Positions 38,385 through 63,656 are shown, numbered from the stretch's first letter. The stretch: 64,000 nucleotides of DNA from an uncultured Ignavibacteria bacterium (GCA_964496505.1 CAZBZV010000004.1:5811-69810), one strand, 5' to 3'. Translations and numbers: made by a program. Notes: generated by a model not told the origin, from the letters alone.

Positions 38385-38682
38385 ACTTGGGACACGTCGC
38401 AGTCGGCGGATCGGTCTGTAGGATATCCTTGTCTCTATCGAGTTTGGTATCGCATTTAGGACAGGCGTATTTTACTTTCAGGTCATCAAGAATCCATTCC
38501 ATGAAATCGCTTACACGCTCTGCTTTATTTCCAGTCTTGCCGTAAGCAACCGCCTGGCCATACCAGAAGGGCCTTCTGTCCGATGTGACCTTATCGAAGG
38601 CAATGACAATCATGCCCTCACATTTCAGCGCCCTGGCCAGGGCGCTGACATGCTCAATTGTCAAATCTTCAGCAGCCATCAC
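38335..38682 (-). CDS. Hypothetical zinc-ribbon protein
   Basis: Contains the motifs CPKCD and CPKCD (ACPKCDTK...TCPKCDF). Confidence 0.35.
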   Translation of the reverse strand: MMAAEDLTIEHVSALARALKCEGMIVIAFDKVTSDRRPFWYGQAVAYGKTGNKAERVSDFMEWILDDLKVKYACPKCDTKLDRDKDILQTDPPTATCPKCDFSGFLFKSFNVVGF

Positions 38683-38854
38683 ATTTCCTGATCTTGAGTT
38701 CTTTTTTGATCTTCACGCTTGCACGGTTGCAGATATCGGAATCAGTCAGACTAAAGCGCCTGGTAACGACATTGAGGATTTCTATATCCGGGAGAACTTT
38801 GGCGATTGTTTCGGCTTCCTGCCGCGTGAGCTTAATCCTTAAATGCCCTGACAT
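38669..38854 (-). CDS. Hypothetical small protein (start trimmed to MSGHLRIK, just after the ParB stop)
   Basis: The track ORF 38669-38947 overlaps the 3' end of the ParB gene. The internal Met at 38854 removes that overlap. Confidence 0.3.
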   Translation of the reverse strand: MSGHLRIKLTRQEAETIAKVLPDIEILNVVTRRFSLTDSDICNRASVKIKKELKIRKCDGC

Positions 38855-38855
38855 A

Positions 38856-40652
38856 TCAGCTCTTCTTTCCTTTCTTCTTGGATTTCTTCTTGGCCCTCTT
38901 TTTCCTGCCCTTATCTTGACAGGCTGAGCACAGAGTATGTGTCTCATCTACCCAATAGCATGGATCCCCCATATCATCAACACATGGCGCTGAATCGGTG
39001 CAACCGCATTTCCGGCATATTCCAGGCGTTAAAGATTTTTTCTTCTTAGTCTTATTCTTGCCGGCTGCCTTCTTCTTTCCTGATTTCTTCTTTGTCTTTC
39101 CCGGCGGCTCTTCCTCGAGCTTGTCCGGAAAGATTGACTGGTAGGATTTCTTGGTGAATGGCGGCCATGATTTCGGGCGCTTGATGGTTTCGACAGCCGA
39201 GACTTTGTAACGCCCGAAATCCAGGCCCAAAAGTTTGTCTGTAAAATCGTTCAGGTCCTTTTCGAATTTATTGACCGGTTCATGCCAGATCTTGACCTGG
39301 CTTTCGATAGAAGTAAGATACTCAAGCATTCCATCCCTGCACTGATCAATGACCATTGATCTGAGCTTTTTGGTTTCGCCGTTATTATTTGCAAATGCCT
39401 TCCATCTTTCATATCCCAAATAATCCTTGGCGCCAGTACCATAGGAAAGCAAGAATCTCAGCATATTCAATACTTCAAATGGGTCATCGCCTGAGAAGAA
39501 TTTACAGGACTTAAGCTTGCGGATGTGATCATCCAATTGGCTGATTATCCAGACAAAGCGCCTGATCTCGAGCTTGATTTCCTTTTCCTCCTGGGTCATT
39601 GGGCCGATCTTTTTACCGGAATTCTCACCCGCCGTGGCTGGTCTCTCGGGTTTTATCCAGGACAGTTGCCCTGCAGCTCCGCCATCGGCTATAATTACAG
39701 GTATAGCGCCCCTAAAATCTTTGGAGGTCTCTTCATAATCAAACCTCGCAAGCACTGGAGCCGGTAAGGTCCTGCCTGGTATTTTCCCTGGATAATAGCC
39801 TTCTCGGGATATCAGCTTGAGATTCTTGTGTTCGGCGCTTAGTTCGGTGTATTTTTTCTGAATAAAGGCATCCAGCTTTTTCGTATAGCATCCGGCATCC
39901 AGACATTGCTCATCGCGCTTAACAGCTTTTTCGGTCAGATCTTCGTGGAATAATTCAGGCTGCCGGCCGGAACGCTTGGGACAGTTGGTGCAGGCCCCCG
40001 CTTCCGGAAGCAGTGTGTCATCATTCAGATCCCAGGGCGCAGACCTCAAGGTCTGATGGTATTCGGACAAAAATTCTCGTATCTGATATTCGGTAATCAG
40101 TTCATCAGGGATGTAAGAAACTTCCTGGAATATCTCATCCTGAACATCTTCATTCCACTTGGCCACAAGCTCGAGAGCCGAGACAGTAATCAGATCGGCG
40201 TTTTCTTTGAGCCAATCCTTCCATTCCTTCGAGAGCTTCAATAACTGCGCTCGCCTGGCCACGAACTGCTGTGTCTTTCCCAGCTCCGCGGCAGCTTCCT
40301 CATAATTCAGGCCGCGATCGAGTAAGATCTGAATCGCCTGGGCCTCCTCGAAAGGTTCGAGGTTTTTGCGCTGCAGGTTCTCGGTTACGCGTATGGCCTG
40401 TGCCTTCATATCATCAGCCTCGACAACCTCGGCCCTGATCTTGGCCTCTCCGAGAGATTTGATTGCCGCGAGGCGCCGATTGCCGGCAATCAGGTCATAT
40501 TTGGTCTTACCCTTTTTGCGGACAATGATGGGATTTAGAAGGCCGACCGCCTTGATGTTCTTGGCCAACTCCTCGACGGAAGCCTTGGTCACCTTCCGGG
40601 CATTGTCCTTTCCGATACTGATGCTCTTAACATCGATTAACTGTGTACTCAT
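38856..40652 (-). CDS. ParB-like nuclease domain protein with a C-terminal Cys-cluster (zinc ribbon) and a polybasic tail
   Basis: N-terminus KYDLIAGNRRLAAIKSLG...IRVTENLQRKNL (ParB box). C-terminus CRKCGCTDSAPC...CYWVDETHTLCSACQ followed by KGRKKRAKKKSKKKGKKS. Confidence 0.65.
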   Translation of the reverse strand: MSTQLIDVKSISIGKDNARKVTKASVEELAKNIKAVGLLNPIIVRKKGKTKYDLIAGNRRLAAIKSLGEAKIRAEVVEADDMKAQAIRVTENLQRKNLEPFEEAQAIQILLDRGLNYEEAAAELGKTQQFVARRAQLLKLSKEWKDWLKENADLITVSALELVAKWNEDVQDEIFQEVSYIPDELITEYQIREFLSEYHQTLRSAPWDLNDDTLLPEAGACTNCPKRSGRQPELFHEDLTEKAVKRDEQCLDAGCYTKKLDAFIQKKYTELSAEHKNLKLISREGYYPGKIPGRTLPAPVLARFDYEETSKDFRGAIPVIIADGGAAGQLSWIKPERPATAGENSGKKIGPMTQEEKEIKLEIRRFVWIISQLDDHIRKLKSCKFFSGDDPFEVLNMLRFLLSYGTGAKDYLGYERWKAFANNNGETKKLRSMVIDQCRDGMLEYLTSIESQVKIWHEPVNKFEKDLNDFTDKLLGLDFGRYKVSAVETIKRPKSWPPFTKKSYQSIFPDKLEEEPPGKTKKKSGKKKAAGKNKTKKKKSLTPGICRKCGCTDSAPCVDDMGDPCYWVDETHTLCSACQDKGRKKRAKKKSKKKGKKS

Positions 40653-40670
40653 ATATCCTCCATTTATAAA

Positions 40671-41618
40671 TCAATATTCCTCCTTTATGATTTCCATTGC
40701 CCGGTCGTAACCGTACTCGATCCCCGCATTGATCTGCTTTCTGTCAAAACTGAGGGTGTCGATTACTTCATGCTCCGGAGCTATAACTGTGAACTTGATC
40801 TTGCGATATTTTTCACCCACGCAGTTGGAATCTACCATCTGATTGATAAAATTCATGTAGGACAGATCTTCGTTGTAGATCTCATTGAGCGCCATGGAGA
40901 GCGACCGGGTCCCGATATCCAGTATATTGCCCTTGTATTCCCAGCTCTCGATATCAAGCGGGCTGCATTCAATCAGAATGATGTAATCAGCTCCGGCATC
41001 GAGGCCCTCTTTTAGCGGCGTCATATTTCGAACACCGCCATCAAGATAATGCCTGCCGGCAATCTCAACAGGCGCCGCATATCCAGGCATACAGCAGCTG
41101 GCATATATGAAGTCATGGGGATGCGCATTTACACCGCGGCCATCAGGAGTCTCGACAGTACCATTGCTGATTGCGATCGTGTAATACTTTCCGTCCTCAA
41201 GGCAGACTACGCCGGAACGGGCGGGGATTTTGAATTTTGATATGTCAGCATATTCACCTATAAGTCTGCGTAGCGGAGAGAAGTCGTATATGCTTGTAAT
41301 ATCGAATGTGGCCAGGCCGAGCTTTGACCAGAGATACTTCCAACCGATGTCGGTGAAACTGTGGGCTTCGCGGTAGATGTCTTTTTGGCGAATTGATCCC
41401 CAGATTCGCTCCATCATCTCGTAATCCTGCATGGCCACAAATACCATCTGCAGGTTGCCGGTGGATACACCGGAAACGCCGGTTATTTCAAAGCCTTGAT
41501 CGAGCAAGGCCTGAATGGCTCCAACCTGGAAGCAGCCCTTGGCGCCGCCTCCGGAGAGTACCAGCCAGATCTTCATATCATCTATTTCGAATTCAATCAT
41601 ACCGATTCTCCCAGTCAT
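40671..41618 (-). CDS. Patatin-like phospholipase
   Basis: Oxyanion motif LSGGGAKG, nucleophile elbow GVSTG (GxSxG) and the catalytic DGG triad (YLDGGVRN). Confidence 0.75.
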   Translation of the reverse strand: MTGRIGMIEFEIDDMKIWLVLSGGGAKGCFQVGAIQALLDQGFEITGVSGVSTGNLQMVFVAMQDYEMMERIWGSIRQKDIYREAHSFTDIGWKYLWSKLGLATFDITSIYDFSPLRRLIGEYADISKFKIPARSGVVCLEDGKYYTIAISNGTVETPDGRGVNAHPHDFIYASCCMPGYAAPVEIAGRHYLDGGVRNMTPLKEGLDAGADYIILIECSPLDIESWEYKGNILDIGTRSLSMALNEIYNEDLSYMNFINQMVDSNCVGEKYRKIKFTVIAPEHEVIDTLSFDRKQINAGIEYGYDRAMEIIKEEY

Positions 41619-41805
41619 TTATTTCTGCCAATTCCGCATCCAGTTCCATCTTGACCCATTTTTGTGGATTCTCTAAAGCCTCTATTTCCTCAAATGGGGC
41701 AAGTAAGAAGCCAAAGTTGAAATCGAATTTATTGTATTCATGGCCCTCCGGCCAATAGCCAAATCGCTCAGTAATTAGGTCATCGCCAGCTCGCCATAAG
41801 GTCAC
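41593..41805 (-). CDS. Hypothetical protein
   Basis: ORF from the track only. Confidence 0.3.
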   Translation of the reverse strand: MTLWRAGDDLITERFGYWPEGHEYNKFDFNFGFLLAPFEEIEALENPQKWVKMELDAELAEINDWENRYD

Positions 41806-41869: not shown

Positions 41870-42754
41870 TTAGCATTCCGGAAAACTCCTTTCCTGGCAT
41901 CCTTCAGGCCATTCGCTCATGTCGTGGCTGACCCTGCCGTCAATCTCTACCTGCTTGACGAAGCACGGCACTCCGGCCTCTTTGCACTGGTCAACTATTG
42001 ATTCAATCCATTCGAGCTTACAGGGACGGCGTTTCGGGCCGGATTCACAGCCGACAATTACCCAATCAAGTATTGGGGTTGGATTTTTGCATAGATGATG
42101 ATCCCAATGTATATACATGTCTTTCCGTGAGTATCCGCAACCTTGACATCTCAAATAATCTTTAACATCAATCTCCCCCAGCATTGGCTCTATGCTGACG
42201 AATTTAACAGCAGCCGGAACCTGCAACAGAATCGGAATGCGTTTGTCGGCCTGCTCTTGATTCTCGGCTGTGACACCAAGCCAGATATGATGCAGATATT
42301 CCTCTGGAATTTTGCTCCGGGTCTCGAGGTTTGTTCCCGGCATAAACACCGCGCCGTCTCTTTTCAGATGCTCATAATATTCCAGCATTCTCTGCGGCCG
42401 TTTGGTTAGCAATATTATAGTTTTCTTTTGATTGCGTACCCATGCAAACTGCCTGAAACATCTATCCAGAATATCAAATGGCACATTCTCGTGAAAAATG
42501 TCTCCCATGCTTCCGATGAATATCTTTTTTCCGGCCGGAGCTTTTCGTATTTGTTCAAGTGCCGGTCTATGAAAAGCAACCTGGCCAGTCCAACCACATT
42601 CATTAATTACAGTTTGGTACTGTGGCTTTCCCATTGCCTTAAGTCTCTTGGCCATTCGTTCAGCATAACAATTTTGACAACCTGGGCTGACCTTAGTGCA
42701 GCCGACAATGGGGTTGATGGTCATGTCAGTCCATTCAATCTTGCTCTTTGCCAT
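41870..42754 (-). CDS. Phage Gp37/Gp68 family protein (DUF5131)
   Basis: The N-terminus MAKSKIEWTDMTINPIVGCTKVSPGCQNCYAERMA is the family hallmark. Confidence 0.7.
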   Translation of the reverse strand: MAKSKIEWTDMTINPIVGCTKVSPGCQNCYAERMAKRLKAMGKPQYQTVINECGWTGQVAFHRPALEQIRKAPAGKKIFIGSMGDIFHENVPFDILDRCFRQFAWVRNQKKTIILLTKRPQRMLEYYEHLKRDGAVFMPGTNLETRSKIPEEYLHHIWLGVTAENQEQADKRIPILLQVPAAVKFVSIEPMLGEIDVKDYLRCQGCGYSRKDMYIHWDHHLCKNPTPILDWVIVGCESGPKRRPCKLEWIESIVDQCKEAGVPCFVKQVEIDGRVSHDMSEWPEGCQERSFPEC

Positions 42755-43199
42755 AAATTGTCCCTTTCAGCAATACACTCAACTCTGCCGCGATCTTCCT
42801 GATTTCATGGTCTGGAAAATTGAGCAAGTTTTCGTATTCTATCGATATGAATTGTGGTTTAATGTTGAGCTTATAACTGCCGTTTCTGTCAGAAACAATC
42901 AGGCCGCCCTCAGGATAAATCTTAAATGTGTCCTGAATGCCATTGCAATCCACTTCCTTTTTGAGATTGTATATGTATCTGGTCTGGCAATCCCCGCAAT
43001 CAAGCTTCTCTTTGTGGAGCCAGCCGCTGGCATCTTCATAAGCCCAAGTCGATGTGACAATGGCTCGATAAGCCAGCTTCGTTAAATAGGTAAAGCTCTT
43101 TTGGGTCAAGAATAAATCCTTATCCAAGAAACGGATGTGAAATCTCAGGCCGCTTCCTACATATTTGGGTTTTCCGATAATATTCAATTCCTCACTCAC
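42735..43199 (-). CDS. Hypothetical protein
   Basis: ORF from the track only. Confidence 0.3.
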   Translation of the reverse strand: MSEELNIIGKPKYVGSGLRFHIRFLDKDLFLTQKSFTYLTKLAYRAIVTSTWAYEDASGWLHKEKLDCGDCQTRYIYNLKKEVDCNGIQDTFKIYPEGGLIVSDRNGSYKLNIKPQFISIEYENLLNFPDHEIRKIAAELSVLLKGTIYGKEQD

Positions 43200-45022
43200 G
43201 CCAATTCCTCCGGAAACAATACTTCCTGTTTGGCCCGGACTTCCCGCCCAGGCAGATAGTCTATAACTTCAAATGTGTTATGAAGCCGGCCCATGTAATT
43301 ATTGAAGGCCCCACCGCCTTCCGCATATCCGAGAGTCCTGGCCAGCTCCTCTCTGCTGATACTGTCCGGGTATATCTGAATCAAATACTCGAGGATCTTC
43401 TGGAGTGGAGCTTGCCTAATTATCTTCAGCCAGCCGCGATGCAATTCCTCAACTCCGGCAATCGGCTCGACCATGCCGGCGGCTTCCCTTCCGGAGTCAG
43501 TCAGCTCGACTTTGCCGCCCTCCGGATAATCGATGTAACCGCCAGACCGAAGCCTGCCGAGAAGGTTATTGAAAGCCCCGCCTTTCGGACTATACTCTGC
43601 CTTGGCCGCGACCATTTCCTTGCTGGGTTTATCTATGCCCAGGGCTTCGAATGATGCTATGGCCTGGAGGACGCGGCGTTGAGGATTGGAGAGTTCAGAA
43701 TTTACAACTGAAGGTAATTTCTTAATCGGTCTCTCCGTGAAATTCTCAACTGTAGATCTGTCCTGAAGGTCGTTGGCTATTGATTGGCCGCGATCAGACG
43801 CTAACCCCTCCATACGATCGAGCAGTTGCCACGGCCTTAGAGACTTTTCCGTAAGCTCCTCGACGTCCTTGCCAATTTTCTGGCTCATTAAATGTATGGC
43901 CTGGAGCGTATTCTCAATTTCACCGCCTGCCTTCTTCAATTCATTTTGCAGAATCCGGATTTGCTTTTTCTGAGCCTGAATTATCGGCCCATGATTACAT
44001 GGCGCCGGGGTATCCTTTTTCAAAAGAGTATTTTCGCGCTTAAGTGCGGACAGTTCTTTCTTCAACTCGACCATATCCTTGGCCCGCTTCTCTGCCTGCT
44101 GGGGAATATCCTCAAGTTTCTCAATCAGTTCTCTGATTTTGCCGGTAGCTTCCGGATGAGTTTCGATGTGCTGTGTTCCGATCTTGGGATGGGACGATTC
44201 AACATCACCGACCTTAACCAGGACAATATCGTCAACCGGAATATATCCCTGGGAGCCTTCGTGTATCCGGAAGGCAGGGCCATAGCAGTGGAATTCCCCG
44301 GGCTGGAGCTTCCGCAGCGCCAGGCTCTCTTCCCTCGAGACAAATCCCAGCTCGTCTACAGCCCGCTTCCGATCGATATCCTGAATAGTCCTGCCGATCA
44401 TCTTATTGCCAAGTTCCGCCGCGGCATCCTTATTCAGCTTGGCCAGTCGCTGGGTTGCCATGATTGTACATATCCCGCGTTTGCGTCCTCGAGTGGCCAA
44501 GTCGATTACTGCCGCTGCGGATTCCGCTTTGCCCTTTTCCGGGCAGATTAAATGCGCTTCGTCCAATACCACCAGAACTGGATGTCGGTATTTGCGCGGC
44601 GCACTGATCAGGGCTTCTGAGAATGCTTTAACGTATGCAATCCGCTCATGTTTTTTCAGTTCGTATAGATCAAAGATGCAGGATGCATTGAACTCGAGAA
44701 GCTTTTTGGCCAGGAGCTTCACTGATTTCAAATCGGCCGGAATATCCCCACCCTTGCCGGCAATGATGTAATCGAACTTTTCTCTGAGTGTATGGAATTC
44801 ACCTTCCAGGTCGATTACCAGTTGCTGGATCCTGCCGTGTGACTGCTCGAGGATTCTCCGGATAAGCCAGGACTTCCCGGCGCCGCTCATGGCCTGGATC
44901 ATGAGACGGGTTTCGGTTAATGTCGCCAGGTCAAGCCCGACCGTTTTATTGTCATGCAGCCCGAGATTTATCATCTTTGCCCTTTGTGATTTGAGTTGGA
45001 ATTTTCTGATCATGCTGGCCAT
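43196..45022 (-). CDS. HerA/DUF87-like P-loop ATPase with two C-terminal winged-helix-like repeats; start uncertain (45022 or 44974)
   Basis: Walker A QAMSGAGKSWL, Walker B VLVVLDEAHLI and a downstream ATQR motif. The C-terminal tandem repeats each contain GGAFNN(L/Y)(L/M)GRL. The track start at 45187 overlaps the upstream zinc-finger ORF. Confidence 0.55.
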   Translation of the reverse strand: MASMIRKFQLKSQRAKMINLGLHDNKTVGLDLATLTETRLMIQAMSGAGKSWLIRRILEQSHGRIQQLVIDLEGEFHTLREKFDYIIAGKGGDIPADLKSVKLLAKKLLEFNASCIFDLYELKKHERIAYVKAFSEALISAPRKYRHPVLVVLDEAHLICPEKGKAESAAAVIDLATRGRKRGICTIMATQRLAKLNKDAAAELGNKMIGRTIQDIDRKRAVDELGFVSREESLALRKLQPGEFHCYGPAFRIHEGSQGYIPVDDIVLVKVGDVESSHPKIGTQHIETHPEATGKIRELIEKLEDIPQQAEKRAKDMVELKKELSALKRENTLLKKDTPAPCNHGPIIQAQKKQIRILQNELKKAGGEIENTLQAIHLMSQKIGKDVEELTEKSLRPWQLLDRMEGLASDRGQSIANDLQDRSTVENFTERPIKKLPSVVNSELSNPQRRVLQAIASFEALGIDKPSKEMVAAKAEYSPKGGAFNNLLGRLRSGGYIDYPEGGKVELTDSGREAAGMVEPIAGVEELHRGWLKIIRQAPLQKILEYLIQIYPDSISREELARTLGYAEGGGAFNNYMGRLHNTFEVIDYLPGREVRAKQEVLFPEELA

Positions 45023-45215
45023 ATCCAAGGATGTGATAGCGGCGAGATTCTCCGCACTTGCCGCAAGATGGGCTGTGCTTGTTAATTCCCAATTGCTGCA
45101 TTTCCCGGAATGTCCTCGAATCTTTGTGACCGCATTTATAGCAGCCGTAGTGGATTGTGGGATTCTGGGGGTCTGCCTGGGTATCAAATCTTACGCTTCT
45201 ATATGCGGGATGCAT
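44952..45215 (-). CDS. Hypothetical zinc-ribbon protein
   Basis: Motifs CYKCGH....CGKCGE. Confidence 0.35.
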   Translation of the reverse strand: MHPAYRSVRFDTQADPQNPTIHYGCYKCGHKDSRTFREMQQLGINKHSPSCGKCGESRRYHILGYGQHDQKIPTQITKGKDDKSRAA

Positions 45216-45976: not shown

Positions 45977-46594
45977 TTAATCAAGTCTTACAAACCTCGG
46001 TGTCCCATCCGGATAATGCTCCAGATGGTTCTCATCAACATTATCAAAATCAATAGTAGCAATGGCCTTTGCCAGCGCAAGCAGACCCCCATTGCAAATG
46101 GTAAATCCCTTCTTAATGTATTTCTGCATTCTCTGCATCGTAGAGAGTGGCTTCGGTAATGAGTTAATTACCAGCTTACGAGCGGCCAAATCTATGAAAA
46201 ACGTATCGTGATGGATTACTTCAACCGTGTCTACAGCGGCACAACATACAGTGAAATCAAAATTGTCAATCGTTTCCTGGGGGCCCGGGAAATAGATTTT
46301 TATAAGCTGGAAATGATGCTTTTTATACCTATAATCTATGGAATTCGTAAAATCCCCGATTAATTCGGCTCCCTCATTATTCCAGACTTTTTCATTGAAA
46401 TACTCCTTTGCCCTCTCGAGCTCGTATTCGTCAGAAAAATAGATATCTATATCACTGTGGGGATATCCATAAGAAAAAAAGTCTCTCAATGCGCCTCCTG
46501 CAATCCAGCAGTTTCTGCCACAACCGGCCTGACCAAGCAACTCGCCGAGAATAAGATTATCAAAATAGCTTACACATCTATCTAATTGCTCCAT
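45977..46594 (-). CDS. Minimal Pol-beta-superfamily nucleotidyltransferase related to the poly(A) polymerase/CCA-adding enzyme head domain
   Basis: Segment WIAGGALRDFFSYGYPHSDIDIYF fits the GGxxRD-(8-9)-DxD motif of the PolyA_pol/CCA head domain. At 205 aa it lacks the neck, body and tail domains. Confidence 0.55.
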   Translation of the reverse strand: MEQLDRCVSYFDNLILGELLGQAGCGRNCWIAGGALRDFFSYGYPHSDIDIYFSDEYELERAKEYFNEKVWNNEGAELIGDFTNSIDYRYKKHHFQLIKIYFPGPQETIDNFDFTVCCAAVDTVEVIHHDTFFIDLAARKLVINSLPKPLSTMQRMQKYIKKGFTICNGGLLALAKAIATIDFDNVDENHLEHYPDGTPRFVRLD

Positions 46595-57157: not shown

Positions 57158-59464
57158 ATGGCCATACAATATTATTCTCATAGCGAAAATTTATGCGGGG
57201 ATCACAATCCATTGTCTGATCATCTCATTGGCGTGGCCAAGCTCGCCCGAGAATTTGGTACTCCATTAGGAATAGAAAAGGAATCCGAGCTTGCCGGAAT
57301 TCTGCATGACCTTGGTAAATATGGTGATTTATTTCAGAAACGTTTACGCGGTGAAATTAGAGGTATTGATCACTGGTCTGCCGGAGCCTGGACTGCCATT
57401 CAAAGATATAAGCAAAATGGCATAGCCTCTGCCCTGGCAATCCAGGGACACCATATAGGCCTGCAGGAGGTCTCTAAGGATGCCCTGCAAGGAATGGACT
57501 TGCAAGCATTATCAGAGCAGCATCCATTAAATCTGAGGCTGTCTGAACAAGATTTGAATAATCTGATTTATCGGCTCAAGGCAGATGGCTTAACACTGCC
57601 AAATGATTTAAATCATTCACTATTTGATATTAGCGAGTCGAATAAAACCCCAGCCTCATCGATGCTTGACTTTCGAATGCTGTATTCCATTCTTGTAGAT
57701 GCTGATTATTTAGATACTGAAGCACATTTCAATGCAGAATCAGCAGGCATAAAAAACTATCGAAAACAAGGACAATCTATCAAATCTCATGAGGCATTTA
57801 ATATTCTTCTATCATATATTAAAATCCTCGCAAAAAACTCAACTTCAGCTATAAAAATGAATGACTTGCGAGCAAAGCTGCTTGAAGATTGCTTATCAGC
57901 CGCTGAACGCCAAACCGGATCATTTAATCTTTCAGCCCCAACAGGCTCAGGAAAAACACTTAGCATGATGGCATTCGCCTTAAAGCATGCTATCAAGAAT
58001 GATCTAAGAAGGATTATTATTGTCATCCCTTATTTGAGCATTATTGAGCAAACTGCCCGGGTGCTGAAAAACATATTGTCTGACAAATTCGGAAAAGATT
58101 ACATTATCGAAGATCATAGTCTGGTTGAATCAGGAGCAAGCAGTAATGTTAATTCCGATTCACGGCAAGCAAAACTGTTATCAGAGAATTGGGATGCTCC
58201 AGTAATAATCACAACCAGCGTACAATTCTTGGAATCAATCTTCAGCAACCGACCGTTTAGATGTCGCAAGCTCCACAGAATGGCCAAAAGCGTTGTTCTT
58301 TTTGATGAAGTTCAGACACTTCCAACCCATGCGATTATTCCAACGCTTGCAACCCTCTCACGCATTTGTGAGAGATATGGTTCTTCTATAGTCTTCTCTA
58401 CGGCGACTCAGCCCGCTTTTAATCATTTGCATAAACATGTTTCTGTTCTCTGCAACCAAGGTTGGGAACCATCGGAAATTGTAAATGATCATCAGTCCAT
58501 GTTCAAGAGGGCCAGTCGAGTGAGTGTCTCTTGGCCTAACGAGAATGAAAGAGTACCATGGGAACAGTTGGCTGGGATGCTGACTAAACACTCCCAGGTA
58601 CTGTGCATTGTCAATTTAAAACGGCATGCCCATACTCTTATTGATGAATTGGCAAAAACCGATAATACAGGGTTGCTGCATTTATCAACAAACATGTGCC
58701 CTGCCCATCGCGCGACGGTTTTAGAGCATGCCTCTCAAATGCTTGGAGAAGGCTCCCAATGCAGGCTCATATCCACTCAATGTATTGAAGCCGGAGTAGA
58801 TATTGATTTCCCGGTCGTTTACAGGGCATTCGGCCCTCTCGATTCTATAGCCCAGGCCGCGGGCAGGTGTAATCGCAATGGCAATAATGATCTGGGGAAT
58901 GTGACTGTCTTTATCCCCGACGAACCATGGAGTAAATCATATCCAGATGGAGCTTATAAACAGGCAGCAGAAGTAACAGCTTTAATATTGAAAAGATGCG
59001 GAACATCGAAAGCTGATATCACAGATACAAATCTTTTCGAAGATTATTTTCGGGAGCTTTATTCTATCAGAAATATTGGAAATGATAAAACGGAATTAAC
59101 AATAGCAATAAAAAGACTTGATTTTGTGACCACCGCTAAGAAATACTATGTTATTAAGAATCAGGATACTATCAGGATTTTGGTACCATATGATTTGAAG
59201 GACTATTCACAATTAAGAGAAGCATTGGATGAGAAGGGTCTTACGAAGGAATGGATAAATTCTGCACAATACCATAGCATTAACATTTTCAGGCCGAAGC
59301 CGGATTCAAATGCATGGAATTACCTCGATCCCGCCCCTATAGGGCCAAGAATAAAACATAATAGAGAAAAATCAGATAGCTGGTATGTTTATTTGGATGA
59401 GGAACATTACGATGCAATTAAGGGATTGCTGATACCCAAAGACACTGAATACATAATTGCTTAA
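57158..59464 (+). CDS. cas3: Cas3 HD-nuclease/helicase (type I)
   Basis: HD motif ILHDLGKY. Helicase Walker A SAPTGSGKT and the DExQ box LFDEVQ. Confidence 0.9.
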   Translation: MAIQYYSHSENLCGDHNPLSDHLIGVAKLAREFGTPLGIEKESELAGILHDLGKYGDLFQKRLRGEIRGIDHWSAGAWTAIQRYKQNGIASALAIQGHHIGLQEVSKDALQGMDLQALSEQHPLNLRLSEQDLNNLIYRLKADGLTLPNDLNHSLFDISESNKTPASSMLDFRMLYSILVDADYLDTEAHFNAESAGIKNYRKQGQSIKSHEAFNILLSYIKILAKNSTSAIKMNDLRAKLLEDCLSAAERQTGSFNLSAPTGSGKTLSMMAFALKHAIKNDLRRIIIVIPYLSIIEQTARVLKNILSDKFGKDYIIEDHSLVESGASSNVNSDSRQAKLLSENWDAPVIITTSVQFLESIFSNRPFRCRKLHRMAKSVVLFDEVQTLPTHAIIPTLATLSRICERYGSSIVFSTATQPAFNHLHKHVSVLCNQGWEPSEIVNDHQSMFKRASRVSVSWPNENERVPWEQLAGMLTKHSQVLCIVNLKRHAHTLIDELAKTDNTGLLHLSTNMCPAHRATVLEHASQMLGEGSQCRLISTQCIEAGVDIDFPVVYRAFGPLDSIAQAAGRCNRNGNNDLGNVTVFIPDEPWSKSYPDGAYKQAAEVTALILKRCGTSKADITDTNLFEDYFRELYSIRNIGNDKTELTIAIKRLDFVTTAKKYYVIKNQDTIRILVPYDLKDYSQLREALDEKGLTKEWINSAQYHSINIFRPKPDSNAWNYLDPAPIGPRIKHNREKSDSWYVYLDEEHYDAIKGLLIPKDTEYIIA

Positions 59465-59498
59465 TCATACACATTTAATTAAATCTATGGGAGGAATC

Positions 59499-60248
59499 AT
59501 GAAATCAAAGGATCAGGCCTTGGAGGTCTGGGGCGATTTTGCCTGCTTTACAAGGCCGGAGATGAAAGCGGAACGATTCAGCTATCCTGTGATTACGCCT
59601 TCTGCGGCTCGCGGCATTTTCGATGCCATTTACTGCAAGCCGGAGCAATTCCGATGGCAAATCACAAAGGTTGAAATCATATCCTTACCAAGCTATATCG
59701 CTTTGAGGAGAAATGAGGTTAAGGAGAAGATTAGCACAAAGGCAATTCAGGCTTATATCAAGGGTAAAAAAGACCCTGTGCCAATATTTGCTGACGGTGA
59801 TATCAGACTAACAGGATCTGATGTCAAGGGCCGTACACAGAGGCAAACCATGGCATTGCGTGATGTGCACTATCATTTACATGCCGAAATTCGTCCCTGG
59901 CCGGAGTATGAGGATCGCATTCAGGATTTTGAGGCACAATTCAGGCGGAGGGCATCTAAGGGGAAATGTTTCCAGCAGCCATATTTCGGATGCCGTGAAT
60001 TTCCCGCATTTTTCCGGCTAATCGAACTCCATGAGGAGCAGTCAAAAACAATTGATCAAGACTTGGGGGATATGGGATGGATGGTATATGATGTTTTTGA
60101 TCTGGCTAATAAAGGCAAAAGCGACAGCAAACCTTTTATCAGCCTTTTTAAACCATCCATTGAAAACGGTGTATTGCATATTCCATCATACGACTCTGAT
60201 GAAGTTATCAAACCTAATCAGGGAGGTTACGATGCTGCATCTACTTAA
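59499..60248 (+). CDS. cas5c: Cas5c (Cas5d) of type I-C
   Basis: N-terminus MKSKDQALEVWGDFACFTRPE is the Cas5c hallmark. Start moved to 59499, which has a GGGAGG RBS 5 nt upstream; the track start 59457 overlaps cas3. Confidence 0.85.
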   Translation: MKSKDQALEVWGDFACFTRPEMKAERFSYPVITPSAARGIFDAIYCKPEQFRWQITKVEIISLPSYIALRRNEVKEKISTKAIQAYIKGKKDPVPIFADGDIRLTGSDVKGRTQRQTMALRDVHYHLHAEIRPWPEYEDRIQDFEAQFRRRASKGKCFQQPYFGCREFPAFFRLIELHEEQSKTIDQDLGDMGWMVYDVFDLANKGKSDSKPFISLFKPSIENGVLHIPSYDSDEVIKPNQGGYDAAST

Positions 60249-61989
60249 GGATTATGCTGAGAGACACGGCATTGTGGCTGAACCGGGTTTCACGAGAATG
60301 GATATTAAATGGGCAATTATCTGCGATGATTCCGGCCAATTTGAAGAGATTATTGAGTTGGGCAATCCGGAAGATAAAAGAAACACAGGTATTACATTTT
60401 TAAAAGTCCCAGATATCAGCTTTACCAGCGGTGGGAAAAAGATGAGCAAGCCCCTGTGGGAAACCGCGAAGGTGATCGCTTTTCTTGGCTCCCCAGCTGA
60501 TGATGAGAGTATTAAACCTAAGCATAAATACTTTATTGACCAGCTAAAATCAGCCTCGGAATACTATAGCCCTCTGACCAACATATCTGAGCAGTTAAGT
60601 AATTCAGGTACTGTCGAATGGCTAAGATCGAAAATGGACGATCTTGGAATAAAGCCAACTGATAAGATCACATTTAAAATCGGCCCGGAGTATATAATCG
60701 ATCTTGAAGATTGCCAGGAATGGTGGAGGAAAATTCATAAATCCTCGAAGAAGAAAAAGGCCAAAAAGAAAAGCGTGGATGAAATGCTCTGCCTTATGAC
60801 TGCGGAACAGACAAGGCCAGCACTAATCCATAACAAAATAAAGCAACTCGCCAATGTTGGCGGGCAGGCCTCGGGTGATGCCTTGATTAGCTTCAAGCAG
60901 GAATCTTTCCAGTCATTTGGACTCCCAAGTTCAGCCAATGCCCCTGTTTCTGAAGAGAATATGACCACTTATACTCAGGCTCTAAATGTGCTCATTAATG
61001 AATCCGGCAGAAAGTTGGGAGATACCAAAATTGTCCATTGGTTCAAAAATCGAATCAGGCCTGAGGATGATCCGCTTAGCTGGCTTGTCGAGTCAGAGGA
61101 GATTAGCGAGCTAAATGCTCAGCAACGGGCAAAAGAGATGCTTGACAGCATCAGATCCGGAAAAAAACCGGAATTGCATGATAATTTCTACTACGCCTTA
61201 ACTGTCTCTGGTGCGAGCGGAAGGGTCATGGTCCGTGACTGGATGGAAGGCCAGTTCTCGGATTTAGTCGAGAACATAAACACATGGTTCGATGATCTAT
61301 CGATTGTCAATCGAAATGGCTCTGGCCTTGCACCTCCGCCGAAATTCATATCCGTTCTCGGGGCATCGGTCAGGGTATTGGATGATTTGCATACACCATT
61401 TGTCGCAAAAATGTGGCGGAGGGCTCTTAAGGGTGAGACCTTCCCTGCCTTCGCTCTGGCTGGAGCAGTCAAGAGAATGAAGATTGATATCATCAACGAT
61501 GAGCCCGCCAACCATGCCCGGGCAGGTCTGTTAAAAGCATATTTTGTTCGAAAAGAAAGATTTTATGGAAAGGATATAACTATGCAACCTTATCTGAACG
61601 AGGATCATCCTCATCCCGCATATCATTGCGGCCGATTACTTGCGGTTCTGGCAGCGTTACAGCGCAGAGCCCTGGGAGATGTTGGGTCCGGTATTATTCA
61701 GAGGTATTACACATCGGCATCCGCAACCCCCGCCCTTGTGCTTGGTAAACTCACCAGCGTCAGCCAGCATCATCTGAATAAAATTGAATCTGGAGGACTG
61801 AAGTACTGGTATGAAGGGAAAATTGCTGACATCTGGAGCAGGATCAAGGACCAGATTCCCGGAACGCTTTCTCTCGAAGAGCAAAGCCTCTTTGCTCTCG
61901 GATATTATCAGCAGATTGCCGATCTGCGAACCCGCAAAGTTGAAGCTATTGAAACAAATGAAGAATCAGGGGAGGTAGAAAATGTCTGA
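60232..61989 (+). CDS. cas8c: Cas8c (Csd1) large subunit of type I-C
   Basis: Position after cas5c and before cas7c. Start set at [13 protein letters not shown] (60232), which has a GGGAGG RBS; the track start 60031 overlaps cas5c. Confidence 0.8.
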
Positions 61990-62932
61990 ACCAATTAAAA
62001 ATCGTTATGAATTTATGCTGCTTTTTGAGTGTGAAAATGGAAATCCCAATGGCGATCCTGATGCAGGCAACGCGCCACGCATAGATCCGCAGGACTTACA
62101 TGGGCTTGTCTCAGATGTTGCACTGAAAAGGAGGCTACGCAATTATGTTCAAATTGCAAAGGGCAATAAAATGCCCTATTCCATCTTCATTGAGCACTCC
62201 ACAAATCTAAACACAAAAATAGTAAGATCACATGAAGAAACAGAAGGCGGTTTAGGAGATGGTTCAAAGGGTGCCAAAAAGGAAAAGGTGGATTTGGCGA
62301 AGCGCTGGATGTGTGATAATTTCTTTGACATACGGGCTTTTGGTGCAGTAATGAGCACAGGCCCGAATTCAGGCCAGGTTCGCGGTCCTGTGCAGTTCTC
62401 TTTCGCACGTTCAGTCGATCCAGTGCTTCCACTCGATCTGTCAATAACTCGCATGGCTGTGGCGGAAAATGTCAAGGGTGCAAAATCAAGCGCTGACTAC
62501 GAAAAATGGGAAAGCGAGCAGCCGGAAGACAAGCTTCGGACAATGGGACGGAAAGAATTGATACCCTATGGCCTTTACGTGGCCAAGGGTTTTATCAGCG
62601 CTAATCTTGCGCAAGAGACTGGATTTGGCGATAATGATCTTGAGCTTTTGTGGGAAGCATTATTGAATATGTATGAGCATGATAGGTCTGCCAGTAAAGG
62701 ACATATGGCGGTCAGAAATCTTTTCATATTTAAGCATGTTGGTACTGATACTGACCAGGAACAGCGAGTCAGGGAAGCCATACTTGGATGCGCCCCCGCG
62801 CATAAATTGTTTGATCTTGTAAAGATTAATAAGAAAGAAGATGTTAAAGCCCCGCGAAAATATGTGGATTATGATGTCAACATAGATGAGGGTAGCCTGC
62901 CCTCAGGGGTAGAGTTGATAAGGAAATCGTAG
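61982..62932 (+). CDS. cas7c: Cas7c (Csd2) of type I-C
   Basis: N-terminus [24 protein letters not shown] is the Csd2 hallmark. Confidence 0.9.
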
Positions 62933-62933
62933 C

Positions 62934-63656
62934 ATGTTTTCTGAAGATGATCTGCTGCCGATTTCCGCTCTGCAGCATCTAGCATTCTGCAAAAGACAGT
63001 GGGGATTAATGTACCTCGAGGGTATATGGGCTGAGAACCTTCTCACTGTGGAAGGTTCTCAGCTTCATGAAAAGGCTGACGAGCCCTCACACCAAATACA
63101 GGATGGTGTCTTGATTGCCCGGGGTCTAAAGCTTAGATCATTGAGAATCGGTCTGATTGGCAGAGCTGATGTCGTTGAATTTCATAATATCCCGCTCAAA
63201 CACTTGTTGGCTGGGAGAGAGGACAATGTATCAAATACACCAAACATATTCGATTTGATTAAACGGGAAATGGACATTGTCCCCTTCCCTGTCGAATACA
63301 AACACGGTAAGCCTAAAATCGATTTATGCGATGAAGTCCAGCTTTGCGCGCAGGCATTGTGCCTGGAGGAAATGCTGGAGATCGAAGCGCCGCGGGGGGC
63401 GATTTTCTACGGAAAACCACGGCGTAGAACAGGTGTCGATTTCGATGACAAATTGAGAAGAGCAACAGAAGAATATGCTGCCGAATTGCACCATTTGACT
63501 CTCCTTGGCAAAACACCTATTGCCAAATACGAAAAAAAGTGCAAAAGCTGTTCCATTATGGATTACTGTCTGCCAAAATCTGCCGGACATGGAAAAAGCG
63601 CCAGGAAATATATCTCCGATCAGATTGATCAGCAGTTGTCTGATACCGAGGATTGA
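62934..63656 (+). CDS. cas4: Cas4 RecB-like nuclease with an Fe-S cluster
   Basis: An N-terminal Cys plus the C-terminal CKSCSIMDYC cluster. About 240 aa, located between cas7c and cas1. Confidence 0.85.
   Translation: MFSEDDLLPISALQHLAFCKRQWGLMYLEGIWAENLLTVEGSQLHEKADEPSHQIQDGVLIARGLKLRSLRIGLIGRADVVEFHNIPLKHLLAGREDNVSNTPNIFDLIKREMDIVPFPVEYKHGKPKIDLCDEVQLCAQALCLEEMLEIEAPRGAIFYGKPRRRTGVDFDDKLRRATEEYAAELHHLTLLGKTPIAKYEKKCKSCSIMDYCLPKSAGHGKSARKYISDQIDQQLSDTED

Follow-up and report, generated by a model that had tools for sequence, protein, structure and literature searches.

What use does a phage have for a lipase gene that stands by itself, with no evident partner, among the genes of its replication module? 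The question is raised by a stretch of 64,000 nucleotides from an uncultured Ignavibacteria bacterium (GCA_964496505.1, CAZBZV010000004.1:5811-69810), referred to here in its full length as the window. An open reading frame (ORF) on its minus strand, 40671..41618, encodes a patatin-like protein of 315 aa, which an initial annotation had described as a stand-alone phospholipase in the early region of a prophage, with possible roles in superinfection exclusion, lysogenic conversion or lysis, and against the background of patatins as effectors of abortive infection. The analysis reported here points to an apparently intact, self-sufficient acyl hydrolase that the phage may employ inside the host cell during lytic growth.

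The patatin ORF and its catalytic domain

The ORF exists as first described, and the three signatures reported for it, GGGxKG, GxSxG and DGG, are all present. Its true start is most likely the ATG at 41600, which gives a protein of 309 aa, because this codon is preceded at 6 nt by the motif GGGAGA and forms an overlap (ATGATTGA) with the stop of the upstream ORF, because a 90%-identical homolog (P0001) begins at the same point, and because the 309-aa form is an exact entry of the public protein collection, in which the 315-aa form does not occur. Reading of the sequence before the alternative ATG at 41618 revealed no ribosome-binding site (RBS). The gene is closely packed, its start overlapping the preceding stop and only 18 nt separating it from the next gene, and it is probably translationally coupled to the upstream ORF, for which neither Pfam nor PHROGs gave a match. 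The gene, its borders and its motifs are laid out as follows.

41593..41805, minus strand: upstream 70-aa ORF, its stop overlapping the patatin start
41607..41612, minus strand: Shine-Dalgarno-like GGGAGA, 6 nt 5' of the ATG at 41600 (sequence reading)
41601..41618, minus strand: six-codon N-terminal extension from the alternative ATG at 41618, probably untranslated (no RBS, absent from P0001)
40671..41600, minus strand: coding sequence of the patatin-like acyl hydrolase, probable true extent, 309 aa and stop (PF01734, RBS, stop overlap, P0001, database match)
41535..41552, minus strand: predicted oxyanion-hole and phosphate-binding motif G23-G24-G25-A-K27-G28 (aligns to GGAARG of PlpD)
41457..41471, minus strand: predicted nucleophile elbow G50-V-S52-T-G54 (aligns to GTSMG of PlpD)
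41301..41351, minus strand: aromatic insertion specific to the subclade, residues 90-106 (DIGWKYLWSKLGLATFD, including GWKYLWSKL)
41034..41042, minus strand: predicted catalytic Asp motif D193-G-G195 (aligns to DGG of PlpD)
40653..40670, minus strand: 18-nt spacer with GGAGGA, from the patatin stop to the next gene

Residues 19-204 align with almost the entire Pfam model Patatin (PF01734; positions 1-189 of 191), with an E-value of 2.2e-24 and a score of 87.2 bits against a cut-off of 27.7, far above chance. In a phmmer alignment to the solved structure of PlpD the three motifs map on the oxyanion hole, the nucleophile Ser and the catalytic Asp, and none of the three varies when 13 homologs are aligned. 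The concern, voiced with the initial annotation, that the Ser or the Asp of the catalytic dyad might prove to be substituted is not borne out: S22, G23-G25, G28, S52, G54 and D193 are invariant in a wider set of 139 non-identical relatives of viral, cellular and metagenomic origin, while K27 is retained in 132 and G50 in 138 of them.

A model computed with AlphaFold (AF2) on the homolog alignment reached a mean pLDDT of 82.8 and a pTM of 0.83. The 40 best PDB matches of this predicted, not solved, structure are all patatins or proteins of the cPLA2 fold; the closest is the patatin domain of PlpD (Foldseek E 6e-15, TM score 0.81 on the target), and CapV, CapE and plant patatin come next. Its best fold match in BFVD is the unnamed entry UPI000018F622 (TM score 0.75), which is presumably the protein of Rhodothermus phage RM378 discussed below. 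The patatin is acidic (pI 4.7) and ends about 110 residues past the DGG motif, with no hydrophobic N-terminus and no further domains, and a search of it for a signal peptide or transmembrane segment found none (maximum Kyte-Doolittle 19-residue window 1.2). Judged from its sequence, it appears to be a catalytically competent Ser52-Asp193 acyl hydrolase, soluble and cytoplasmic.

The aromatic insertion is confined to the window protein and three relatives (P0001, P0002 and P0003), all others having a gap at this point. The AF2 model contains a helix at residues 88-99 in this region, with a pLDDT of about 71-79, and the insertion could plausibly serve as an interfacial membrane-binding element or a lid helix.

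Position among patatins and distribution in phages

A profile of the family of the window protein scores PlpD at 98 bits, VipD at 50 (N-terminal motif only), CapV at 46, CapE at 36 and ExoU at 31. RssA is the best NCBIfam match of the protein, a partial one over residues 14-83 only, at 47.3 bits against an equivalog cut-off of 272 (NF007623). The lipase model for cyclic-oligonucleotide-based antiphage signalling systems (CBASS), NF041079, fails with 12.2 bits against a cut-off of 200, the PADLOC model PDLC00758 gives 11.4 bits without a significant stretch, and no PHROGs family matches the protein. On sequence criteria the window patatin is placed in a PlpD/RssA-like branch, and in neither the CapV/CapE nor the ExoU branch; with these scores the framing in terms of CBASS or other abortive-infection systems finds no support.

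Comparison with the individual families bears out both the kinship and its limits. PlpD of Pseudomonas aeruginosa (PDB 5FQU/5FYA) is the nearest solved relative, found at E 7e-12 with a single sequence and 7e-27 with a family profile, and has the same layout of GGGxK/RG, GxSxG and DGG, although identity is only 21-24%. In PlpD, which is a phospholipase and a type Vd autotransporter, the patatin is combined with a signal peptide, a POTRA domain and a beta-barrel translocator, whereas the phage protein is a bare catalytic domain; membership in the type Vd autotransporters was rejected, as signal peptide, POTRA domain and C-terminal beta-barrel are all lacking and the passenger domain alone is homologous. 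The small RssA/YchK patatins (PRK10279, COG1752 'NTE family') are of the same size class and are likewise solo-domain, cytoplasmic proteins, and JGI labels homologs of the window protein 'NTE family protein'; the score far under the equivalog cut-off nevertheless means that the window protein is not an RssA ortholog. CapV and CapE are single-domain patatins of similar length and related fold (Foldseek E 1e-12 to 1e-10), but they are CBASS phospholipases activated by cyclic GMP-AMP (cGAMP) or cyclic UMP-AMP (cUA), whereas the window patatin fails the CBASS and PADLOC models and is not accompanied by a cGAS/DncV-like nucleotidyltransferase (CD-NTase); on curated models and gene context, membership in CBASS (CapV, CapE) or among other defence effectors was rejected. 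ExoU and VipD have the catalytic motifs in common with it, but the match is limited to the N-terminal 55-60 residues (28-50 bits), and these proteins of 550-700 aa carry C-terminal targeting or activator-binding domains that the window protein, at 309 aa, does not possess.

Phage patatins as a kind are already known from annotation, namely in Wolbachia phage WO, Burkholderia prophages and giant viruses, and we found no experimental or functional study of a phage solo patatin in the literature. Phage WO has been described as carrying a 'putative patatin-based lytic cassette' (PMC9203015). As in the plausibly temperate element of the window, the patatin there is borne by a temperate phage, but it adjoins holin-like and ankyrin genes just upstream of the tail module, whereas the window patatin lies in a replication module. 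Membership in a WO-type lytic cassette was rejected: the flanks are the 70-aa ORF, a DUF5131 gene and a ParB-like gene, and the lysis candidates lie at 2683-3676. No WO record is among the seven phage-database matches to the window patatin. Burkholderia prophage morons that encode patatins have been discussed as virulence factors (PMC2920897).

The subclade to which the window protein belongs is rare: E-values below 1e-30 were reached by only about nine of 5.8 billion proteins searched and by 12 clusters in a set of 1.84 billion representatives. Solo patatins of 270-330 aa as a whole form a large family, for which 1,402 clusters score at E 1e-10 or lower. A genome scan yielded relatives at 37% identity or less only, and a 51%-identical homolog stands in an apparently cellular Zixibacteria context. 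Particularly informative is a 1.7-kb fragment of a related phage (L167) that encodes a 90%-identical patatin. DNA homology between this fragment and the window extends from the patatin ATG to 21 nt beyond the stop, so that the spacer is included. Upstream, the fragment has a gene for an MmcB-like repair protein (phrog_5429) in place of the 70-aa ORF; downstream, it lacks the ParB-like gene, and the patatin is followed directly by a homolog of the small window gene at ~38669-38854. The ratio of nonsynonymous to synonymous substitution rates (dN/dS) between the two patatins is 0.088 at a dS of 0.63. Since DNA homology is confined to the gene, the flanks differ and dN/dS is low, we infer a discrete, selected mosaic unit, independent of both neighbours; the sequence comparison thus defines the patatin as an autonomous single-gene cassette under strong purifying selection. 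Relative to the fragment (L167 1557-1658), the ParB-like gene is a clean insertion or deletion that leaves the RBS spacer and the following small gene in place.

A recurrent genetic partner was sought by home-made ORF calls and all-against-all BLAST of the neighbours at 80 viral and 59 cellular loci. The only recurrent neighbours were multi-copy paralogs in a distant jumbo-phage clade and a genus-level synteny in Sphingopyxis; no conserved operon was seen around the cellular relatives (~30% identical, many phyla). When the neighbours at 168 related loci were compared with all window proteins, none were shared save for isolated matches in at most two loci each.

Scanning of IMG/VR with one family motif identified 91 contigs with full-length solo patatins of 270-330 aa, many of them on jumbo-phage contigs of 200-530 kb. 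In a crude neighbour-joining tree without reference patatins, the window clade groups first with viral sequences and only then with those from cellular genomes. The closest phage relatives are repeatedly placed in modules of replication and repair, that is, of nucleic-acid metabolism: the patatin lies near genes for ribonucleotide reductase, HD and HNH proteins at the P0003 loci, near a Cas4-like nuclease and a metallophosphatase in L007, near RtcB in L010, and, in the lytic Rhodothermus phage RM378, two genes from the DNA polymerase gene and near a helicase (Rm378p022, annotated as hypothetical). Rm378p022 and the solo patatins of uncultured and jumbo phages are full-length relatives with 25-35% identity in which the catalytic residues are likewise invariant; all carry no annotation beyond hypothetical protein, and none has been characterised. 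RNA-repair-type genes also recur near patatins, in the form of a giant CCA-NTase/HD protein in L007 and of RtcB in L010.

Other settings were noted as well. In a more distant clade, at 31 IMG/VR loci on large or jumbo contigs (for instance L019 6318-7286, L026 8074-9267, L025 and L029), up to five paralogous copies of another protein surround the patatin. These paralogs, of 65-1755 aa, have an N-terminal region of ~100 aa in common (...DKxDFETNYK...) and very variable C-termini; they lack any Pfam match, correspond only to phrog_8198 of unknown function, and are possibly tail-fibre-like or receptor-binding-like. In three of the closest IMG/VR loci, Gly/aromatic-rich proteins of ~160-180 aa with a signal peptide are encoded, one gene upstream of the patatin in L011 (2188-2724) and L013 (3031-3564) and two genes upstream in L014 (9034-9777), and look outer-membrane-like by eye. 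As an outer-membrane partner of the patatin they were rejected, having no Pfam match, no mutual BLAST similarity and nothing similar in the window. In L013 a tyrosine integrase gene lies two genes downstream, the patatin being in a moron-like position.

Genomic surroundings and the phage element

Nearly every gene from ~52.8 kb down to ~1.8 kb of the window is on the minus strand, as is the patatin. The features that bear on its context are the following.

53455-53910: CI-like repressor, divergent from the patatin operon
47375-51031, minus strand: fused SbcD-SbcC nuclease, upstream of the patatin
45977-46594, minus strand: small nucleotidyltransferase (NTase), 205 aa, upstream of the patatin
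43196-45187, minus strand: HerA/FtsK-like ATPase, 663 aa, upstream of the patatin
41870..42754, minus strand: DUF5131 protein of phage Gp37/Gp68 type (Pfam E 2.5e-71, phrog_2045), upstream context
38856..40652, minus strand: ParB-like protein (ParB_N and HTH_ParB), 598 aa (Pfam, PHROG), downstream context, not a partner
2909..3676, minus strand: candidate lysis cassette, with an endolysin-like protein of 144 aa (3242-3676) and a protein of 107 aa with one transmembrane segment (2909-3232)
2683-2835: small hydrophobic ORF of the candidate lysis cassette

The ParB-like protein has a tail rich in Lys and, at its C-terminus, a Cys-rich motif, and its gene is followed downstream by several small ORFs and by genes for DnaD-like and DnaC-like (helicase loader) proteins. 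Genes for the large terminase subunit (TerL), portal, capsid and tail lie further downstream on the same strand as the patatin. No sigma-70-like promoter or intrinsic terminator framing the patatin was detected on its strand, in a scan with the sigma-70 consensus that may not suit the uncultured host.

The view of the patatin as a stand-alone protein holds up, with a single domain and no cyclic-nucleotide sensor, cyclase or SAVED partner nearby, and no CD-NTase was present among the ~20 neighbouring proteins scanned. The sole nearby NTase, 4.4 kb from the patatin, is of the poly(A)-polymerase/CCA class (PF26128; some members have PF01743) and is found beside no relative of the window patatin. 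It is a minimal enzyme (GGALRD...DIDIY) of a phage and metagenome family with 150 homologs, its exact sequence is present in the NCBI part of the public protein collection, and a PDB search with it was uninformative.

The larger proteins upstream have features of their own. The SbcD-SbcC nuclease is a single ORF of 1218 aa (phrog_77, E 1.5e-51) that joins a Mre11-type metallophosphatase (residues 17-247) to a Rad50-type ATPase with coiled coil, subunits that are usually separate proteins. The HerA-like protein consists of a P-loop ATPase in its N-terminal half (DUF87), a coiled coil and, C-terminally, a winged-helix-like segment that occurs twice; it also matches a 'terminase large subunit' PHROG (E 9e-21), though it lies far from the true TerL.

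The description of the locus as the early region of a prophage stands in part. Replication and repair genes do surround the patatin, and the structural genes do follow downstream. That the element is temperate, and present as a prophage, is plausible because both flanks are cellular and a CI-like repressor is encoded, though neither an integrase ORF nor an attachment-site (att) repeat pair was found in the window, where no repeat of 12-mer or longer plausibly joins the two flanks. On the left the flank includes a secreted C1A peptidase that shares ~70% identity with proteins from uncultured Zixibacteria, Cloacimonetes and Planctomycetes. The right flank holds a type I-C cas3-cas5-cas8c-cas7-cas4 operon (57158-63656, plus strand), ~3 kb past the repressor end of the phage; Cas3 combines HD and helicase domains, Cas5c, Cas8c/Csd1, Cas7/Csd2 and Cas4 pass their NCBIfam cut-offs, and cas1, cas2 and the array would fall beyond the window. 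A possible att remnant is the sequence CCGGGGTTCAAGTCCCTGCACCGCTA (1625-1650, minus strand), which resembles the T-arm and 3' acceptor half of a tRNA and lies in the interval that separates the left cellular gene from the last gene on the phage side; it occurs once in the window and drew no call from ARAGORN or Rfam.

The candidate lysis cassette occupies the distal end of the element, at a distance of 37 kb from the patatin. Its endolysin-like protein belongs to phrog_3108 (E 3e-32), a family of unknown function, and gives weak, non-significant PDB matches to phiKZ gp144 and a lytic transglycosylase at E about 0.4, so that the endolysin assignment is weak; the N-terminal transmembrane segment of the 107-aa protein was judged by eye. 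No spanin-like lipoprotein was recognisable in the cassette (2683-3676). The last gene after it (1830-2666, minus strand), which may be either the first gene of the host or a phage moron, codes for a secreted protein. The N-terminal segment of this protein is dockerin-like, sharing 63% identity over 41 aa with dockerin proteins of Zixibacteria, and the protein also contains a Fibrobacter succinogenes major paralogous domain (E 5e-54).

Two features near the packaging module are recorded for completeness. A perfect 22-bp tandem duplication (two copies of TTTTGTCCATCTTTGGGGGAAA, 34395-34439) occupies a gap between small genes upstream of the module. ARAGORN predicts a tRNA-Gly(UCC) ending in CCA (32281-32356, minus strand), directly upstream of the large terminase gene and inside an ORF at 32253-32972, in disagreement with an Rfam scan of the whole window at gathering thresholds, which returned zero matches.

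A possible role in the lytic cycle

Our favoured explanation, to which we give about an even chance, is that the patatin is a cytoplasmic lipid hydrolase of the lytic cycle that acts in turnover of host membrane and lipids during takeover, its substrate, timing and benefit being inferred. The protein would be produced in lytic growth alongside the replication proteins, and not in the lysogen, because its gene is packed in a lytic DNA-metabolism operon and has relatives in strictly lytic phages; the 91 IMG/VR contigs with solo patatins, many of them from jumbo phages, are a further reason to place its function in the lytic cycle rather than in the lysogen. Ser52, activated by Asp193, would attack an acyl ester, with the backbone of G23-G25 forming the oxyanion hole and Lys27 holding a phosphate or carboxylate; hydrolysis of the acyl-enzyme would then free a fatty acid from host glycerophospholipids or lysophospholipids. 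The enzyme would work alone, without a genetic partner, at the inner face of the cytoplasmic membrane, and the phage may benefit from a remodelled or weakened host membrane, from lipid turnover and possibly from a cell primed for release.

Several considerations weigh against this explanation. An early, unregulated cytoplasmic phospholipase should harm the host before progeny are finished, and the patatin may therefore be weak, lysophospholipid-specific or otherwise regulated. In a mosaic phage, where a gene lies tells only roughly when it is expressed, and the promoter scan relied on the sigma-70 consensus only in an uncultured, non-model host. Moreover, the distant jumbo clade has its patatin among multi-copy, possibly tail-fibre-like genes and not among replication genes, and the role of the patatin may therefore differ between clades.

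Among the alternatives, action at the very end of infection deserves attention, as a role as lysis accessory was part of the initial annotation. In this scenario, to which we give little credence, the patatin would be a dedicated late lysis enzyme that destroys the outer or the remaining inner membrane after holin and endolysin have acted, in place of spanins. The lack of a recognisable spanin-like lipoprotein would fit such a role, as would a host that is probably diderm, of uncultured phyla of FCB/PVC type; lysis with a patatin has been proposed for WO phages (PMC9203015), and LysB of mycobacteriophages offers an analogous spanin substitute. What speaks for a different role is position and make-up, since the gene sits in the replication operon, 37 kb from the endolysin and holin candidates and without an adjacent holin-like gene, its product has no export signal, and its close relatives occupy DNA-metabolism modules and do not lie beside lysis genes. 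The fold is also compatible with a gentler chemistry. A patatin-fold esterase acting on lysophospholipids, acylglycerols, storage lipids or another acyl ester would be an auxiliary metabolic or detoxifying enzyme and would not damage membranes; the nearest characterised cellular relatives by profile are of RssA/PlpD type, many of them non-toxic cytoplasmic enzymes, solo proteins of this sort form over 1,400 clusters from cells of many phyla without toxin-like context, and early expression is more easily reconciled with a non-lytic activity. Sequence does not separate these substrate classes, however, and the resemblance of the aromatic insertion at 90-106 to an interfacial membrane-binding element, together with PlpD itself being a phospholipase, makes us regard the esterase as unlikely.

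The remaining alternatives assign the patatin to the lysogen; superinfection exclusion and lysogenic conversion were among the roles suggested in the initial annotation, and both are disfavoured by an operon in which the gene is co-oriented with lytic genes, overlaps its neighbour and is framed, within the reach of the scan described above, by no sigma-70-like promoter or terminator such as a moron would have, and by relatives in lytic RM378 and in jumbo phages. A prophage defence or superinfection-exclusion effector would be an abortive-infection lipase that comes into action only when another phage enters the cell. Patatins are frequent effectors of CBASS and other defence systems, CapV and CapE are also single-domain proteins of ~300-350 aa, the element with its CI-like repressor looks temperate, and the related patatin two genes from a tyrosine integrase in L013 is in a typical moron position; the failing CBASS and PADLOC scores, the lack of a CD-NTase and the class of the nearby NTase, unconserved beside relatives, nevertheless leave such an effector quite improbable. 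Export by the host as a lysogenic-conversion toxin against other cells, in the manner of ExoU, VipD or Pat1/2, finds a parallel in the virulence discussed for the Burkholderia prophage morons (PMC2920897), but we hold it to be very improbable indeed: the protein carries no signal peptide, secretion-system signal, chaperone or C-terminal targeting domain, ExoU and VipD align only at the N-terminal GGG/GxSxG stretch, and the host is an environmental uncultured bacterium.

Returning to the lytic-cycle hydrolase that we favour, the finding itself is a well-supported annotation, drawn from sequence, and what may be said of mechanism is limited to generic lipid hydrolysis. Useful additions, mildly interesting rather than surprising, are the assignment to the PlpD/RssA-like branch instead of that of CapV/CapE, the selected autonomous cassette and the recurrent placement with replication and repair genes. 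A wider and speculative extension, which we think has a small chance of being correct, is that solo PlpD/RssA-like patatins are widespread, unrecognised early or middle phage genes that edit the host membrane from inside and not at lysis. The carriers of solo patatins span temperate phages of ~50 kb to jumbo phages of 500 kb, in addition to lytic RM378. If it were true, editing from inside could disable membrane-anchored defences or respiration, block superinfection, or build or release a membrane-associated replication site.

Discussion of patatins in phage biology has mostly concerned bacterial toxins and the CBASS effectors that hosts use as weapons. In this genome, as in many others of phages, it is the phage itself that keeps a catalytically intact, partner-free patatin under strong purifying selection, usually among its replication genes. 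Should phages routinely hydrolyse host lipids in the course of replication, this would mean a lipid-level layer of host takeover, and with it a set of small, self-sufficient lipases.

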